Positions 14,850 to 42,044 of a DNA stretch of 49,151 bases are shown one piece after another; the first letter of the stretch is position 1, and each line of letters begins with the position of its first letter. The position numbers and the translations under genes were made by a program. Source of the DNA: Scenedesmus sp. PABB004 (lineage: Eukaryota); contig JABVCE010000039.1 in assembly GCA_014905635.1 (NCBI GenBank), positions 186,001 through 235,151 on the forward strand. The letters run 5' to 3'. The notes beneath the pieces are model-generated. The model did no database searches. It was not told the origin of the DNA and saw only the letters and a program-made list of their open reading frames with translations.

Positions 14850-15516
14850 GGTGGGACGAGCTCGCTGCGTGCTGCTGGTGGGGTAGGTTCGCGGAGACGG
14901 GCGACGTCGGGACAGGAGGTGTCGCGGGGGCGGTGTGCATAGGCGCGAGCGCTGGTGTGAGCGCGGGGCCACAAAGTGTCACTCTACAACGCGGCGGGGC
15001 GTCGCGTGCGTGCCAACAGTGCGCGCAAAACATGCGGCGCCCCGCCCTTGCCCGTCCCACGCCGGGCAGCAACACGCGCCACGCGGCGGGCAGGCCGTGC
15101 CGCCGCCGCCGCAGCCAGCGGGCGCAGCGCACAGCTGGCGGCGCGCGCCTGGCTGCCGCGCCCGCCCGCCCCGCTCACTTTTTCGGGCGTCCGTGAAACG
15201 CACTGCACCACCATTCGTTGCGGGGGCGCGAGAAAAACCAGGAGCAGTGTTGACTGAAAATCCCAGTGCGCGGTGCGTTTGTCGGTTGGCGTGCCCTCTG
15301 TTGTGCCTGCGCTCGTTCGTGATGGATGCCCCCCCCCCACATCTTTGAACAGTCCTCCACCGGTTGGCCGTTCAATCAACGTGGATCCGCCACCAAATAC
15401 ACCGCAGAGGACCCAAAGCCACCGTGCAACGGTCGTGCACACCCCGCGCGAGCCCAAGCAATGCACAGAACCTTGCGCCATGCTCACGGCCGGTGTGGCG
15501 CCTGGCCAGCAACCGC

Positions 15517-17315
15517 CTAGACCGTGGCCGCGCCCCCGGAGCTGGCCGGGCCCCCGGTGTTGCTGACGTTTGGCGACCACCCCGCGTCCCCGCCCTGCGC
15601 GGCAGACGTGTACGCCGTGGCCTGCCCCGCCTGCTCCTGCGCGGCGCCGGCCGCGGCGACGGCCGCCACAGCCTGCCCCAGGGGGGGCGCGGATGGCAGG
15701 TACGGCGCCACGTGCGCGAAGAGCCGCGCCACCTGGCTCCAGGTGAGGGCGCCATAGAGCATGAAGTGCAGCACGCCGCGCAGCATGTTTGACTTGCGCC
15801 ACAGCGCCGCCACGCGGTCGACCTTGGCGCTGTCCGACGTCGTGCGCTCCAGGTGCTGCAGCATGCTGCTGCGCGCGCTGGTGTCGTCGCCGGCCGCCAG
15901 CTGCGTCTGCAGCTCGCGCACCTGCAGGCGGCGGCAGCGGTGACAGCGCGCGAGGGTGAGAGGGGGCGCGCTCACAGCGCCCGCTGTGAGCAGAGCCGCC
16001 CGCCGGTCCGCTCGCCAGCCCGCCCGCCCGCAGCGCACCTGCTCCAGCAGCGGCGCGTGCAGGCGGTTGAACGCAGCCAGCCCAGCCAGCATGTCGGCGA
16101 CCTGGTCGGGGCTCAGGCGCAGCAGCCGCACGACTGCCATGAAGTGCGCGAGGTTGTGCTCTGTGGCCAGCTCGCCCGTCGCGCGGTTGGTCAGGGCGGC
16201 CTGCATGATCAGGACGGGCCGGCGAGCCAGCCCGAGGCTGAGCATCAGGTTCAGGCCGGTGCACAGCGCGGCCTTGATGCGCGCAACCGGCGGCGGCTGG
16301 CCGGGCGCGGTGCACGCGTAGCCCGCGCCGCCCGCGGCGGCGCCGTCCAGTGCCAGCATGCAGGCGGTCATCTCGCGCTCGACCCCGCCCATGGTGGCGA
16401 GCACCTCCTCAAAGCTCACCGTGTCTGCCTGAGGGAAGCGCGGCTGCGGGCGGCGGGCGGCGCTTCGGCCACACGCGTTGGCCACGCGCTGAGCTGCGCG
16501 CCGTGCCCAGCCGCGGCTGGGTTGGGGCCCCGCCGGCGACCCCGCCGGCCGCCGCACCTGCATGATCGTCCACCGAAACAACAAAAAAGGGTCGTGCCGC
16601 GGCGCGATGCGGTCGTCTGCCGCCGCGTCCGGCGCGTACTCGCTGCCGGGCGCGCACGCGGCGCCGCCGGGCGCGCAGGCGCTGCCGTGCCCTGCCGGCG
16701 CCCCCGGCGGCGCCGTGCTGTACGGCAGCCGCACCAGCTGCTCCAGCAGCGACACCTCGCCCTCGCTGGGGGCGGGCGCCGCACAGCCGCTGCCGCCGCT
16801 GACGCCCCCGCCGCTCCAGGCGCCGCTGCCGCTGCCGCTGCCGTCGCCGCTGCAGCAGCTGCCGCTGCGCGCGAGCTCGAGGCACGACTCCCCGCCGGCG
16901 CTGTCGCCATCGCCGCTCTGCTGCTGCCGTGACGCCGCTATGTACTCCAACGCCCACTGCAGCGCGTCGCAGTAGCCGACCAGCAGGTCGTGCTGCGGGC
17001 GGCGGCGGCAGCAGCGGCAGTGGCGGCAGCGGTCGCCGTCTGGCGGCGCGCGCGCCGGGCTGCTGGCGCCCGCTGCGCAGGGCCGCAGGGGCGCGCCCTC
17101 GCGGCACAGCACGGCCCAGCAGCACCAGGCGGGCGCCCGCTGCCCCGGCGCACCTCATGTCTGCTGGCGGCGTGCTGCTGCTGCGCGACTTGGAGCTGCT
17201 CGAGCTTGCTGGCCAGGTCGCGGGTCAGGCCGTCAATCTCAGCCGTCAGACCCTTGCGCCGGGCGCTTTTCGAGGAGCCAGCACCGGCCCTAACCTTCAC
17301 GCGCCGGCGCGGCAT
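15517..17315 (-). CDS. bZIP/DOG1-like algal protein, copy 2 (introns 16993-17153, 16444-16557, 15922-16038)
   Basis: N-terminus MPRRRVKVRAG..KSARRKGLTAEIDGLTRDLASKLEQLQ (basic region plus Leu heptads); the remainder is homologous to 135-1351 at DNA and protein level. Two introns are in-frame and were inferred from paralog alignment plus splice signals. Confidence 0.7.
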
Positions 17316-28427: not shown

Positions 28428-29737
28428 GCAGCGCCGCCGCCGCGCCGCTGGCGGAGCGGCAGGCGGCGCACGAGGAGCTGTTCGGGCGGCCGTGCCGCTG
28501 CGCGCGCTGCGTGCTCGAGGCCGCGCTGACCGAGGAGGCGCGCGCAGCGGTCGCGTCGGTGCATGCGCACGCGGCGGGCGAGTGGCAGGACCGGCTGCAG
28601 GCTGCGCTGGAGGGCGCGCCGGACGCCGACGGCGAGGCGACGGCGGAGCTGCTCTCCGAGCTTCAGGTCGGCGCGTGGCGCGGCGCGGCGCCGCGCCGCG
28701 CGGCGCAGGGCGCGGTCGCTCGCCGCGTGCCGCCGCGGCTGCAACGCCGCCTGCCGCCGCCGCCGGCTCACCCCACGCAGGCCGAGGTGGACAGCGCGCT
28801 GGAGGCGCTGGACGCCGCGCTCGCGCCGGGCGCGCGGCGCCGCGACGACCGGCTGGCGCTCGCGGCGGGCGCGTACGGCGCCTACGACCTGGCGTGGCAG
28901 ATGGAGGAGCTGCTGGCGGAGGAGCCCGACCTCGCCAAGCTCGCGTCCTGCGTCGCGCTGCTGCGGGTGCGGCCGCGCGCGCGCGCGCGCGCGTGCGGCG
29001 GTGCATGGCCACACGCCGGCCGCCTGCCAGACACCCCCCGGCGCGCGCGTGCACCGCCGGCCGCGCGCAGGTGTTTGCGCGCGGCAGCGAGAGCCACGTC
29101 TACAGCGCGCTGCTGCTGGACCAGGCCCACACCGCGCGCGCCGAGGCGCTCACCGCCGAGGCGGGCGGCGGCGTGTCGCGCAAGAGCCTCGCGCGGCAGC
29201 GCCGCCTCACCGCGCGCATCCAGCAGCTGCTCGCGGGCGCCGAGGCGGCGGCGTACGCGTACGCCGAGGCGGTGTCGTGCCGCTACGGCCTGCTGCCGCA
29301 GGACGGCGAGGACGGCCTCGCCCCCCGCCTCGCGCAGGGCCTCGCCCTCTTCTACGCCGGCATGAGCGCGCTCAGCGCGGCGGCCGGCGACGCCGGCGGC
29401 GGCGGGGTGCGTGCGCCGCCTGCGCGCGTGGCGCGCGCCGCCGGCCCGCGCGCGCGCCGCGCGCGCCGCGCGCGCCGCGCCGCGCCGCCGAGCCGCCGCC
29501 GCCGCCGGCGTCCGCGCGGCGCAGGTGCCCGAGCTGACGCGGGAGCTGGAGATCGAGGGCATCCCCGTGACCGTGGTGGACACGGTGGAGGGCGCGGCGT
29601 TTGCGCCTGGCGGCGGCGCGGCCGGCCCCGGCGGCGAGCGGCTGACGGTCGACTGGGTGGAGGCGGGCCCAGAGGACGACAGGCGCCAGCAGCGCGGCGG
29701 CGGGGGCGCGCCGGAGGAGCTGAGCGCGGCGGGGTAG
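26994..29737 (+). CDS. SET-domain protein (SMYD/ATXR-like, degenerate active site), probable organellar transit peptide; multi-exon
   Basis: YVGPIQLK..GVVASEEVSGAELL, GVWPELALLRHSCVPNA, LHATEDLPAGAEVTFNK, post-SET PCRCARC, helical C-terminus. Arg/Ala-rich N-terminus. Confidence 0.75.
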
Positions 29738-29893
29738 GGAGCTTGCTGGTCCTGGAGGCGGCGCTGGAGGCGGCGCAGCGGCCGCGCAGCGGCGGCCGGT
29801 GCCGGCCGAACTCCCTCAACAGCCCGGCCGGCGGCCCAGCAGCTGCCCGGGGAGGCCGCGAGTGCGTGTGCAGCCCCGGCGAGGCCAGCCAGA

Positions 29894-31585
29894 GAAGAAG
29901 GGCGTTACCAGGGGTGAACAAGCGCCTACGGCGCAAACACGGACCCCATCACTTTGGTATAGTCAGTCACTCACGCGCAGCTGCCGCCCGTGGCCACGCT
30001 CACGCCCAAAAGCGTCGCCTGCACACGCTCAGTGCTGTCTCCGCACACGCACCTTGACCGATCGCTCGCTGCTGGGCAGTAGCAGTATTTCAGTGTCGGC
30101 AGCAGCCGGTGACCGCAGGTCGCGCGTGCCCGCGAGCGCGCAACCCGCGCGCGCGGGAGTGCTGGGAGAATGCCACCATCCTCATCGCCGAATAACAACC
30201 AAGCCACTCCCCGCGACGCGGGGAGTGCACCAAGCCAGAAAGGGCTGGCAGGGTGCGAAGAAGGGCGTTACCAGGGGTGAACAAGCGCCTACGGCGCAAA
30301 CACGGACCCCATCACTTTGGTATAGTCAGTCACTCACGCGCAGCTGCCGCCCGTGGCCACGCTCACGCCCAAAAGCGTCGCCTGCACACGCTCAGTGCTG
30401 TCTCCGCACACGCACCTTGACCGATCGCTCGCTGCTGGGCAGTAGCAGTATTTCAGTGTCGGCAGCAGCCGGTGACCGCAGGTCGCGCGTGCCCGCGAGC
30501 GCGCAACCCGCGCGCGCGGGAGTGCTGGGAGAATGCCACCATCCTCATCGCCGAATAACAACCAAGCCACTCCCCGCGACGCGGGGAGTGCACCAAGCCA
30601 GAAAGGGCTGGCAGGGTGCGAAGAAGGGCGTTACCAGGGGTGAACAAGCGCCTACGGCGCAAACACGGACCCCATCACTTTGGTATAGTCAGTCACTCAC
30701 GCGCAGCTGCCGCCCGTGGCCACGCTCACGCCCAAAAGCGTCACCTGCACACACTCAGTGCTGTCTCCGCGCACAGGCTGGCAGGGTGCAAAAGAAGAAG
30801 AAGGGCGTTACCAGGGGTGAACAAGCGCCTACGGCGCAAACACGGACCCCATCACTTTGGTATAGTCAGTCACTCACGCGCAGCTGCCGCCCGTGGCCAC
30901 GCTCACGCCCAAAAGCGTCACCTGCACACACTCAGTGCTGTCTCCGCGCACACACCTTGACCGATCGCTCGCTGCTGGGCAGTAGCAGTATTTCAGTGTC
31001 GGCGGCAGCCGGTGACCGCGGGTCGCGCGTGCCCGCGAGCGCGCAACCCGCGCGCGCGGGAGTGCTGGGAGAATGCCACCATCCTCATCGTCGAATAACA
31101 ACCAAGCCACTCCCCGCGACGCGGGGAGTGCACCAAGCCAGAAAGGGCTGGCCCGTCAGGTCGGGCGTACGGGCAGCGCGGGGCACGTAAGCGGTCGCCG
31201 CAAAGTCGGCCAGCGCCTCCCAAAACGCACTCACTGCCGCCCGCCTGACTATGTCTCGGGCCACGTCAAAGGGCAAGGCACGCTCCCGCACTTGCAGGAA
31301 AATCCAGGCCACGCGCCGGCCGCGTTCGCACGCGTGAATTGCAGCGATGCAGACCATGTCCCAGACCATCTGGGATAGCTGCTCCCGCGGCCGGCACCCC
31401 AGCCAGATGTGCCTGCAGTGCAAGCGCGCGCCGTCCGGCCACCAGTCAAAAGCAGCCAGCTGCTTCTCGATCTCACCCCACACCTCGCCTGCCACCGGGC
31501 ACCGCCAGAAATGGTGCGCCTCGCTCGGGTGCAGCGCGCCGCCCAGTCCGGACGCCTCCGCTGGCTCCGGCGGCTGGCAGGGTGC
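29894..31585 (-). mobile_element. Head-to-tail array of four 5'-truncated L1-like non-LTR retrotransposon copies (A 29894-30242, B 30257-30605, C 30620-30775, D 30790-31571)
   Basis: All copies share one 3' end (minus strand ...CCCCTGGTAACGCCC(TTC)n) and have three different 5' truncation points. Copy D encodes an ORF2 C-terminus (HHFWRCPVA..VW..IWL..VWDMVCIAAI..AVSAFWEALADF..QPFL, stop 31085). The 14-bp GGCTGGCAGGGTGC occurs at 30243, 30606, 30776 and 31572. Confidence 0.88.
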
Positions 31586-31593
31586 GGAGCGAG

Positions 31594-31607
31594 AAAAACA
31601 GCAAAAA
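31594..31607 (-). terminator. RNA polymerase III terminator (two T5 tracts) of tRNA-Tyr
   Basis: AAAAA on + at 31603-31607 and 31594-31598, immediately 3' of the tRNA. Confidence 0.8.
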
Positions 31608-31610
31608 CAG

Positions 31611-31697
31611 TCCTGCCAACCGGATTCGAACCAGTGACCTAGAGATGACAGCTCACACGACTACAGTCTCCCGCTCTACCAACTGAGCTATGGCAGG
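31611..31697 (-). tRNA. trnY-GTA: tRNA-Tyr(GTA) with 14-nt intron (31647-31660)
   Basis: CCTGCCA/TGGCAGG acceptor stem (C1:G72, discriminator A73), D arm GCTC-AGTTGGTA-GAGC, anticodon stem GGAGA/TCTCT with loop CT-GTA-G^A, T arm ACTGG-TTCGAAT-CCGGT. The intron is at the canonical 37/38 position. Confidence 0.97.
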
Positions 31698-31732
31698 TTG
31701 ATATCCCACCAGTGTCCAATGGTTTTTATATA
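31698..31732 (-). promoter_or_regulatory. Plant/algal-type tRNA upstream elements: TATATAAAAA (-35 to -26) and CAA (-3 to -1)
   Basis: + strand TTTTTATATA at 31723-31732 and TTG at 31698-31700. Confidence 0.7.
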
Positions 31733-31869
31733 CAGCAAATGTCAAAGTCACAGATTACGGAAGTACAAACAACAACCCATTTTTCGGGCCGAAATCGCCA
31801 GGCGTACCGATGTGGGACCGGGCCCCGCCGTGTAACCAACGTAACCGTGTAACCAACAACAACATAACA

Positions 31870-33780
31870 CGCAGGTGCCCTGGATCCTGCTCGCTCGCAG
31901 CCACCTCTGGGCGGCGTGCCCCTGGTGGGGCCCGCTGGCGCTGCTGGACTGCGGCCCCGACCAGCGGCCTGTCGGCGATGGCTGGGGCCCGCGCGTGCCG
32001 GCGCCGCCGCCCCCGCTGCGGCGCATGATCGCTGGCCTGGCCGCGCTGGGGCCGGTCATCCAGCTCGAGCCCACCCCTGCGGCTGGGCCCTGGTGCGCCG
32101 ACGTGCCGGTCTTCGGCAACCCTCTGATCCGCGACGTGTACCCCTCGGGGCCGCGCGGCCTGCAGATCAGGCCGGTGCCGGAGGTCGGCGGCCGCCGCGC
32201 AGGCTACGCGCGCACGCTAGTGCGCTCGCTCGGCGACCTCGTGCGTGTGCAGCGCTGGGCGGCTGCCTGGCCGGAGGCGCTGGCCCACGACGCCAACGCG
32301 GAGCGGGCCGAGTGGGCCGACGTCCAGGCGCTGCTGGCTGCGGTGCCTGCGGGGTGGGAGGAGGCGGCGCGCGCTGCGCCCCTGCCGCCGCTGCCTCCGC
32401 GCGGCACGCGCATGATGCCGGCACGCCCGCCAGACCCCGCGGCCCTGTGGGCTGAGGCGGACCTGGTGCCGAGCCTAGGCTGGCGGCTGTACCAAGGGTC
32501 ACGGGCGGTGCCCGTGCTGCTGACCAAGCTCACCGTCAAGCAGGCGACGCTGCTCCAACTCGCCATGCCGGGCGGCGTCGACACGCAGCGGCGCGACAAG
32601 CACGTCGCATTTGCGTGCCTGGCCCTGGGGCTGGCGCCGCCGACGCAGCGCGCGCTGCCCCGGCCGCGGGGCAGCAGCCGGCGGCGGCCCAGCCGGTCCC
32701 GGCGGCGGCCGCGCCGGACCCGGCGGCTGCCGTGGCGGCAGCCGCGGCGGCGGCTCCGCGGCTGCAGCAGCCGCGCTGGCCGGCCTGGACGGGGCCGCCG
32801 TCGACGCCGCGCCTCCCCCGGGAGCTGGCCCTCACCGCGTCGGTCAGGATCGCCCTGCGCAAGCTGTGGCGGCTGCGCTGGGACAACGCGGTGTACTGGC
32901 GGCTCGCGCTCAACGGTCTCGCGACCGCTGAGCGCATGTCCCAGCCCGAGTTTGTCTGCCTCTGCGGCGTCGCCTGCCCCGGCCGCGCGCACCACTACTG
33001 GGAGTGTCCCATCGCGCAGGCAGTGGTGCGAGCCATGCTCGACTCGCTGCCCGCCGAGTGGTGCGCGCGCCCGGCCGATGGCGCGCCACGCCTGCGCCGC
33101 GAGCACGTCTGGCTCATGTTCGCGCCGCCGGCGGCGGCGCGGCGCGCCGGCGCGCGGCGGCTGCATTCGGGCGTGTGGCGCGTGGTGTGCCTGGCCGCGC
33201 TCGCGGCCATGGACACCGGCCGGCGCGCCGCCAACCTCGCGGCCCTCCAGGCCAAGAGGGAGGCGGACGCCCGGACGGCCGCGCATGCCCGGCGTGCTGA
33301 GCGCGCCGCGGCTGCGGGCCAGCGCCTCATCTCCAGCTTGCTGCCCGCTGCGCCTCCCCCCGAGGCGCAGCAGCAGCGACAAGCGGCGGTGGCCGAGCGC
33401 GAGCGCGCGCAGCGGCTGCAGCAGGCCCAGCAAGCGGCGGTGGCGTCGTTCTGGGCCTGGCTGGCAGACTTTGTTGCGTGCCGCGCGGCCCCGCGACAGT
33501 GGTCTGCGCAGGTCCCTGCGCAGCACCCCTTCCTCTGCACCGTGCCGGACGACGCCGACCCACGGGCGGCGCCGCGCATCTGGCTGCAGGCCGGTGCATG
33601 AGGCTCGTTGTGTGTGTGCGGGCGTGTGTGTTTGGTGCTGCCCCGCTGACAGTTCTGTAGGCCGGTGTGTGTGGAGTCCCGGGGCACCGCCGAGATGGGC
33701 GTGCGTGCGACCGGGGTGGGGGGAGAAGGCGGCGTCGGTCGCGGGGGGCGCGCAGTCTCCCGCTCGGTGACACAAGCTTG
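31870..33780 (+). mobile_element. 5'-truncated, frameshifted L1-like retrotransposon (ORF2 C-terminal region with zf-RVT/CCHC knuckle); 3' boundary uncertain
   Basis: GPWCADVPVFGNPLI..LGWRL..LTVKQAT, frameshift near 32650, then LWRLRWDN..YWRLALNG..CLCG..HHYWECPIA..VWL..VWRVVCLAAL..AVASFWAWLADF..HPFL, stop 33601. Homologous at protein level to the minus-strand element; no EN/RT core is present. Confidence 0.82.
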
Positions 33781-41197: not shown

Positions 41198-42044
41198 GAG
41201 CGCGGCGGCGCTGGACGTGGTCGACAGCGCCGACGCGGCGCTGGCGAGCTACACGCTTGTCCGCCCGGGCGGCAGTGGCAGCGGCAGCAGCAGCAGCGGC
41301 AGCAGCAGCGGCGGGAGCAGCAGCAGCAGGAGGAGCAGCAGCAGGAGCAGCGGCAGCAGCAGCAGCGTGCTGGCGGCGCCGCCGGCGCGGCCGGCCGGCG
41401 CCGGCGCGGCCTGGTCGGGCGCGTGGTTTGAGGCCATGGTCCAGGCGGCGGTGCGGCAGCTCGACGGCGCGCCGTTTGTGCTGCGCGTGACGGCGCGGCC
41501 GAGCCTGCAGCTGTCGCTCGTGCGCGTGCCGCCCGCGGAGCTCGCGCGCGGCTGGGAGCACGTGCACGCGACCTACCTCGCGCCCGGCGAGGCGCGGCCG
41601 CACGACGCGCTCGTGCTGGTGCACCTGGTGCCGTCGGAGGCGCAGCCGTGCGTGGTCAGCAGCGTGCGCGGCCGCGCGTGCGACGCGTGCCCGCACGCCG
41701 AGCCGGGCGCGAGCAGCCCGGAGCTGCTGCACGGCCGCTTCGGCGACTGCTGCTCGGGCGAGGCCGGCGCGGCGCACGCCGCGGCGCACGCCGCGGCTGC
41801 CGCCCAGGCAGCCGGCGCGCCCGGCGGGCGGCGCGGGGGCGGCGAGGTGTCGTTCTTTGGGCTCGTCGTGCAGACCGCGGACGGGCGCGACCCCGGGCAG
41901 GGCTGCTACCTGCTCAAGACGACCGCGGCGACGCACGTCAGCGCGGGGGGCGGCGGGTGCAGCTGCACGCACTACAGCCTTACGCGGCTGTGCCAGGGCC
42001 CCTCGCTCGCGCAGCAGTTCCAGGCGGCCTGGCTCGCCAACTGA
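41198..42044 (+). CDS. Conserved green-lineage protein of unknown function (last exon; start not resolved)
   Basis: WF..VRQLDGAPFVL..FFGLVVQ..GCYLLKTT..CSCTHYSL.R..QF.AAWL resembles an uncharacterised plant family (recalled as At2g27830-like). Acceptor AG at 41196-41197. Confidence 0.7.

Follow-up and report, generated by a model that had tools for sequence, protein, structure and literature searches.

A LINE inserted repeatedly at one nucleotide beside a tRNA-Tyr gene of Scenedesmus sp. PABB004

What leads a retrotransposon to use one and the same nucleotide beside a tRNA gene several times over? The question is raised by a 49,151-nucleotide stretch of contig JABVCE010000039.1 of the green alga Scenedesmus sp. 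PABB004, here called the window, in which four copies of a long interspersed nuclear element (LINE) stand in a row behind a tRNA-Tyr gene, each preceded by the same 14 nucleotides (the 14-mer, GCACCCTGCCAGCC). These copies are confirmed here as a real and unusually tidy case in which a LINE inserted repeatedly at a single nucleotide next to a tRNA gene. For the choice of the site, we favor a reading in which the local DNA sets the target.

The initial annotation had described four head-to-tail copies with a common 3' end and (TTC)n tail, differing 5' ends facing the tRNA and the 14-mer ahead of each, next to a tRNA-Tyr gene with T5 terminators; blastn and an exact search confirmed the former, and ARAGORN together with Rfam the latter (Table 1). 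Read along the tRNA strand, with T for the 14-mer, the order is tRNA-T-D-T-C-T-B-T-A-flank, and at this one locus all four copies share the strand of the tRNA and face it with their 5' ends. The exact 14-mers (four, starting at 30243, 30606, 30776 and 31572, all on the minus strand) compare with 0.01 expected from 100 shuffles, and the first begins 25 nt past the 3' end of the tRNA on the minus strand. No further match to the element was detected by blastn in the window. Aligned to copy D with blastn, B and A extend over 356 and 357 nt at 98.0% identity. When the comparison is anchored at the 3' terminus, A equals B over 343 nt, the two depart from D at 7 shared positions of the 343, and C shows no difference from D over 150 nt. 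The tails also vary: D ends in three TTC units plus T4, B and C in two units, and A in two units and a TCT. On its 5' side, each copy borders on the 14-mer and has no TTC repeats.

Table 1. Coordinates of the tRNA gene, the 14-mers, the LINE copies and the flank in the window
Feature	Positions	Strand	Basis
tRNA-Tyr(GTA) gene, 14-nt intron	31611..31697	-	ARAGORN (also with introns allowed) and Rfam RF00005, 59.7 bits
tRNA trailer, 25 nt, two T5 runs, resembling a terminator of RNA polymerase III (Pol III)	31586..31610	-	sequence reading
14-mer copy 1, between trailer and copy D	31572..31585	-	exact match
LINE copy D, 782 nt, with the final 161 codons of open reading frame 2 (ORF2), stop, ~280-nt 3' untranslated region, tail	30790..31571	-	blastn, open reading frame
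3' stem-loop with two tiers, directly ahead of the tail in D and likewise in A, B and C	30814..30850	-	conservation, covariation, folding
14-mer copy 2	30776..30789	-	exact match
LINE copy C, 156 nt	30620..30775	-	blastn, 100% to D
14-mer copy 3	30606..30619	-	exact match
LINE copy B, 349 nt, identical to A	30257..30605	-	blastn, 3'-anchored comparison
14-mer copy 4	30243..30256	-	exact match
LINE copy A, outermost, ~349 nt; tail boundary ambiguous within 29891-29899	about 29891..30242	-	blastn
Distal flank, beyond copy A	29781..29890	.	met directly by the tRNA side in one X4 contig

Three different 5' ends set on the 14-mer, tails that vary and a split into two sequence variants (A/B and C/D, distinguished at the 7 sites) indicate independent insertions, and the conclusion that at least three of them occurred at one nucleotide is well supported. 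The array displays the marks of target-primed reverse transcription (TPRT), namely varied 5' truncation, a common 3' end and a flanking duplication, with the exception of copy A, which lacks the duplication. Copies A and B form identical 363-nt units when the 14-mer is counted in, and their 5' junction lies inside a 7-nt overlap, GCCAGCC, common to the end of the 14-mer and to element-internal sequence; the last 7 of the 14 bases thus equal the element's own sequence at the A/B truncation point. Microhomology of this kind at the 5' junction is typical of LINE/L1 5' end joining. For copy B, a separate event steered by the 7-nt overlap and duplication of A by unequal exchange are about evenly balanced.

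To place the 14-mer inside or outside the element, Logan contigs from four freshwater metagenome runs (X1, X3, X4 and X8, from four different studies) were aligned to positions 29000-32600. The interval 29847-30693, uncovered in X1, X3 and X8, was not counted as evidence, and joints with sides of 20-22 letters (29154>29609, 29519>31416, 31013>31194), together with other X3 and X8 rows, were ignored as GC-rich cross-matches. An X1 contig of 1110 nt (3 other letters in 776) and contigs of X3 cover copy D and continue beyond 31572 into more open reading frame, where the letters encode the residues that precede the D frame in a Scenedesmus protein described below; position 31572 is therefore a true 5' truncation point. 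Two other copies, one in X3 and one in X8, are followed past the tail by sequence unrelated to the 14-mer. Since longer copies are not headed by the 14-mer and the tails of other copies do not lead into it, the 14-mer is not part of the element, and the read-through contigs rule out an element-encoded 14-mer; one of the cases that the initial annotation had named as refuting its view thereby falls away. Position 31091 is T in D and C in A, in B and in the contigs from each of the four runs, which marks the change as private to D.

The coding part of the element is seen in copy D, where an open frame of 161 codons on the minus strand (31088..31570, stop at 31085-31087; P0001) contains the motif HHFWRCP. 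This frame alone has no Pfam match; many metagenome and algal proteins resemble it in their C-termini, at 50-59% identity. Full-length relatives, P0011 and P0013 (1421 and 1427 residues among the relatives), are 50-52% identical to the C-terminal part present in the window and carry the domains Exo_endo_phos (PF03372) and RVT_1 (PF00078). A zf-RVT domain scores 18-19 bits in the ORF2 of the relatives, under its 27.5-bit cut-off, and a Cys/His pattern C..C...H....C is visible in P0011, P0013 and P0021. The best match of the full-length relatives among solved structures is human L1 ORF2p (E 1.7e-40), collinear over residues 13-863, which span the endonuclease and the reverse transcriptase (RT); R2 proteins follow at 1e-12. 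The apurinic-endonuclease-like (APE) and RT domains are accordingly read from the relatives, the window copies being too truncated to show them. A 677-residue protein of Scenedesmus sp. PABB004, named LINE-1 ORF2 protein, is identical to the first 38 residues of the D frame and reaches upstream into the RT; P0021 likewise shares 38 identical residues with the window frame and extends into the RT.

Judged by this homology, the repeats are 5'-truncated copies of an L1-like, APE-type LINE whose sense strand is the tRNA strand, and longer copies of the element exist, probably in the same genome or in a very close one. Two further statements of the initial annotation are thereby supported: an L1-like nature, through APE and RT in the relatives and human L1 ORF2p as the top structural match, and a green-algal host, through the 38-residue identity to the Scenedesmus protein.

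The 3' ends of the window copy and five related copies follow one plan, in which a hairpin is succeeded by TGTAAC-like bases and then by (TTC)n or (TC)n. In the inner helix, all 30 of the 30 cells are paired, and compensatory change on both sides occurs at 2 of 5 pairs; slid alignments pair only 17-53% of cells, and 2 of 500 shuffles match the observed covariation score. The outer 5-bp helix, in which the sequences differ, folds in four of the five copies folded, the fifth (locus L001) having been cut at wrong coordinates and not counted. The 3' end of the element is of the 'stringent' LINE kind. Peptides derived from tRNA were also sought at the N-termini of open reading frames in other copies; the 11 matches all came from other species at 43-57% identity, and none was convincing by eye. 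A scan with a 3-residue T-arm peptide hit 36 of 178 proteins, which is pure noise, and was dropped as a test.

The surroundings of the tRNA gene are exceptional in base composition. The window has a G+C content of 77.8%, and only nine T5/A5 runs occur in its 49 kb, four of which adjoin the tRNA; outside the tRNA neighborhood, 30-mers with a G+C content of 40% or less make up 0.015% of the window's 30-mers there. The tRNA-Tyr is the sole Rfam-supported tRNA in the window. A 92-nt 'tRNA-Arg(GCG)' called by ARAGORN at 41645-41736 on the plus strand, with 81.5% G+C and a long extra arm, had no Rfam tRNA match and is probably a false positive. Immediately upstream of tRNA-Tyr, an AT-rich island (31698-31850, ~50% G+C against 78% in the window) holds most of the 30-mers at or below 40% G+C. 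The remaining T5/A5 runs and low-GC 30-mers cluster only at 15179-15233 and 16559-16584, where Rfam reports nothing at the gathering score.

A related population has an allele that lacks the array. In run X4, whose element copies are ~98% identical to those of the window, contig record 17 (208 nt, depth 5.1) joins 29781-29890 (2 other letters) through 28 letters, GGGAGAAGGGCGAACAAAAAGGCCTCTC on the plus strand, to the tRNA at 31615-31684 (1 other letter). The tRNA-Tyr of X4 thus abuts the same flank, so that the array is an insertion/deletion polymorphism between a resident tRNA and its neighbor. The X4 allele carries CGCCCTTCT, a 9-nt match to the element's 3' end (the last bases before and into the tail), at the point where the 3' end of A meets the flank in the window; it is either a native trailer mimicking the element's 3' end or the stump of a deleted array. 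An alignment of the X4 trailer to the window trailer plus 14-mer gave ~64% over 22 nt by eye, which is too weak to use.

Our preferred explanation, to which we assign a probability of about one half, is repeated TPRT into a self-regenerating hotspot, which the local DNA of the Pol III terminator region would define. At least three separate TPRT events of one L1-like family would have struck the same nucleotide 25 nt behind tRNA-Tyr. In the events that gave C, D and possibly B, the nick in the plus strand would fall between 31585 and 31586, with that in the opposite strand at a distance of 14 nt; each such event would duplicate the 14-mer and leave an intact site of trailer plus 14-mer only on the tRNA side. 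New copies would enter this tRNA-side site and older ones would be pushed outward. Only the tRNA-side 14-mer retains the original trailer, which would explain growth outward from the tRNA, and such a direction fits the A/B pair being the more diverged. The first event (A) would have been irregular, giving no distal duplication: the target may have lost bases, or the 14-mer may have arisen at the 5' junction of A and become a target later. The site would be chosen through the AT-rich, T-run terminator region and the junction made by the first copy, both of which are very unusual at 78% GC. Nucleotide-exact reuse on both strands resembles DNA-guided cleavage more than tethered placement within a range of positions, and we rate selection by local DNA as likelier than tethering of a protein to the Pol III machinery. 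In X8, a copy abuts a flank with 40% G+C and a T5 run two bases from the tail, which also counts for local DNA.

Several observations weigh against this hotspot. The 14-mer is not present on the far side of copy A, and because A equals B in sequence, one of the two may be a duplicate rather than an insertion. The array-less X4 allele contains no 14-mer; the 28 nt of its trailer do not align with the window trailer and hold one T5 run against two, and its tRNA acceptor arm ends in other bases, so that the site cannot be called cleanly empty. The array is without read support, as no contig of the four runs spans 30331-30693, a gap that is expected because repeats collapse. No common motif was found in the 3' flanks of A, of B to D, of the X3 copy and of the X8 copy, and a strict sequence-specific endonuclease is therefore not supported. 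The terminator-like hint in X8 amounts to 30 letters of one contig. The initial annotation had taken the 14-mer for a target duplication regenerated by each insertion and had proposed a check in empty alleles: the exact 14-mer before every copy and its origin outside the element agree with this, and an array-less allele was found, but the 14-mer fails to appear distal to A and in that allele. Targeting of microsatellites, of the kind known from Koshi, was considered as well and is ruled out by the 5' flanks, which are without TTC.

The behavior of related elements was assessed in 13 loci totalling 42.5 kb, 11 from metagenomes (L001-L011) and two (L012 and L014) from one metagenome-assembled genome (MAG), in which the flanks upstream of the element are almost never included. 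In L001, two head-to-tail copies belong to diverged subfamilies (73-78% identity), and in L002 and L003 a short 5'-truncated copy lies directly behind a longer one; no tRNA is in view in any of the three. Stacking is a habit of the family in these loci, and the absence of a visible tRNA beside the stacks keeps attraction to resident copies alive as an alternative and complicates the target-duplication model. No credible tRNA was found by ARAGORN in 12 loci (L001-L012) or by Rfam at E <= 1 in all 13 (these plus L014); such tRNA-free loci are uninformative on targeting because their upstream flanks are mostly missing. The 46 Rfam matches at E <= 1 in the 13 loci are all low-complexity noise except a speF leader in L011. 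This locus, with a weak match to the query (23 residues) and a bacterial speF leader, is not a relative of the element, and a 'tRNA-Ser' with a 110-nt intron called there by ARAGORN with introns allowed lies on a bacterial contig and was not supported by Rfam.

Some of these loci show features of their own. Between the stacked copies of L001, ~260 nt (1150-1410) start with a motif resembling a LINE 3' end, TTGTAACC, and end in four TTC units; the segment may itself be a short retroposon, the third in L001, with a tail of this type. In L002, the short second copy has a 23-nt inverted piece of element sequence at its 5' junction (1177-1199 against 1059-1081). Twin priming in L1 makes inversions of this type. 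Locus L012, a 5.4-kb contig with a full-length eukaryotic LINE, belongs to a MAG that bears the label uncultured Synechococcus; the contig looks like an algal contaminant of a cyanobacterial bin, and its element appears to be that of L003, with equal scores of the Rfam noise and a constant offset of 1392 nt. The collection of genome contigs yielded this one algal contig, in the Synechococcus-labelled MAG, which holds only two matches, and the collection of viral contigs contained no relative and no exact match to the 3' end.

Three other explanations have to be set against the locally determined hotspot. By analogy with TRE3 of Dictyostelium, the LINE might be directed by the tRNA gene itself: the element's protein would read factors bound to the tRNA in the Pol III complex and nick at a set distance downstream, the array being the resulting pile-up. 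The only Rfam-supported tRNA and the only element copies in 49 kb lie 25 nt apart in the same orientation, at least three insertions fell at this single tRNA, and the array-less allele shows that they came to lie between a resident tRNA and its neighbor; TRE3, according to excerpts of PMC5911963, provides a precedent at 40-150 bp downstream in the same orientation, and the T5 run in the X8 flank could be another terminator. This is nevertheless the record of one locus, and known tethered LINEs, in the same excerpts, use a range of positions rather than one nucleotide (PMC5911963). The stacks of relatives without a visible tRNA speak against a Pol III tether too, weakly so in view of their mostly missing upstream flanks. 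We regard direction by the tRNA gene as the strongest of the three alternatives and as a possibility, though not a probable one.

Attraction to resident copies would make the tRNA a bystander. Under this scheme the CGCCCTTCT match would have paired with the element RNA at the first event, and later copies would have hit the junction that resulted. The position of the motif in the X4 allele, exactly where the 3' end of A meets the flank, agrees with it, as do the half of the 14-mer that is identical to element sequence where A and B are truncated and the stacks of L001 (in diverged subfamilies), L002 and L003. Pairing cannot explain C and D, however, because on the 14-mer side of the later nick nothing matches the element tail; the 9-nt motif in X4 could be a remnant of a deleted array, and the stacks in relatives show no repeated spacer. 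We consider attraction unlikely as the cause of the array. Still less likely is that one or two insertions were multiplied by unequal crossing-over, replication slippage or an assembly error. The identical 363-nt units of A and B, 14-mer included, invite such a view, as does the interval that no contig crosses, and unequal exchange between the shared 3' parts of neighbors could duplicate a unit; three different 5' ends exactly at the 14-mer, the different tails and the two variants oppose it, since deletions would need to end at the 14-mer every time.

The modest reading of the locus is that it preserves a natural record of repeated, nucleotide-exact LINE insertion with a regenerated target, accompanied by a polymorphic allele without the array, which suits it to studies of site choice and site re-use by APE-type LINEs. 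A more ambitious reading would be a chlorophyte L1-like family that seeks out tRNA genes and enters on their terminator side, in tRNA orientation and at a near-fixed distance, rebuilding a 14-bp target in arrays that grow outward; we hold this view tentatively and think it rather doubtful. Were it true, the family would parallel Dictyostelium TRE3 by convergence and would be the first known case of retrotransposon targeting downstream of tRNA genes outside dictyostelids. If insertion is indeed tRNA-directed, it would represent an independent origin of the 'safe-harbor' strategy in the green lineage, with the AT-rich flanks of Pol III genes as rare islands. Targeting of tRNA genes as a property of the family is attractive but unproven.

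A 2018 review confines retrotransposon insertion downstream of tRNA genes to dictyostelids (PMC5911963). Words beginning with 'alga' or 'plant' are absent from that text, and words beginning with 'alga' from a 2016 survey of tRNA targeting (PMC5006619). No report of a tRNA-linked LINE in green algae surfaced in the literature searched, subscription journals and Repbase entries lying outside its scope. The nucleotide-exact cleavage of both strands and the constant target duplication proposed here are shared with the R1-type LINEs of ribosomal DNA. In R1, the target duplication is 14 bp. R1 differs in having one conserved multicopy target, whereas the flanks of the other copies of our element are unrelated. 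Among algal elements, Zepp of Chlorella occurs in clusters and inserts into copies of itself. The clustering is common to Zepp and the present array, but here the copies lie end to end with a repeated 14-mer. Zepp is given a poly(A) tail in the sections of PMC3472496 that treat it.

In the same sections, most green-algal families of the L1 clade end in repeats other than poly(A), and at least one of them (e.g., L1-1_CR) uses stringent 3' recognition (PMC3472496). The element described here resembles these LINEs in its structured, non-poly(A) 3' end, and it differs in its (TTC)n, which is not among the repeats listed in that portion of the source (PMC3472496). Two Tx1-group LINEs of fish, Kibi and Koshi, which are specific for (TC)n and (TTC)n, share the L1/Tx1 affiliation, the TC/TTC 3' ends and site-specific insertion, as far as extracts of PMC4494074 describe them. 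Kibi and Koshi sit inside the microsatellite; here the repeat occurs only at the 3' side and acts as a tail rather than as a target. The closest parallel may be TRE3 of Dictyostelium. For TRE3, targeting of many tRNA genes has been shown, compared with one locus here, and excerpts of PMC5911963 give it a range of 40-150 bp and an oligo(A) end, in contrast to the nucleotide-exact distance of 25 nt and the (TTC)n tail of the algal copies. By analogy, the two would have in common an ORF2 with APE, RT and perhaps a zinc finger, and insertion downstream of a tRNA, in tRNA orientation, with repeated hits at one tRNA, as TRE3 is portrayed in parts of PMC5911963 and PMC5006619.

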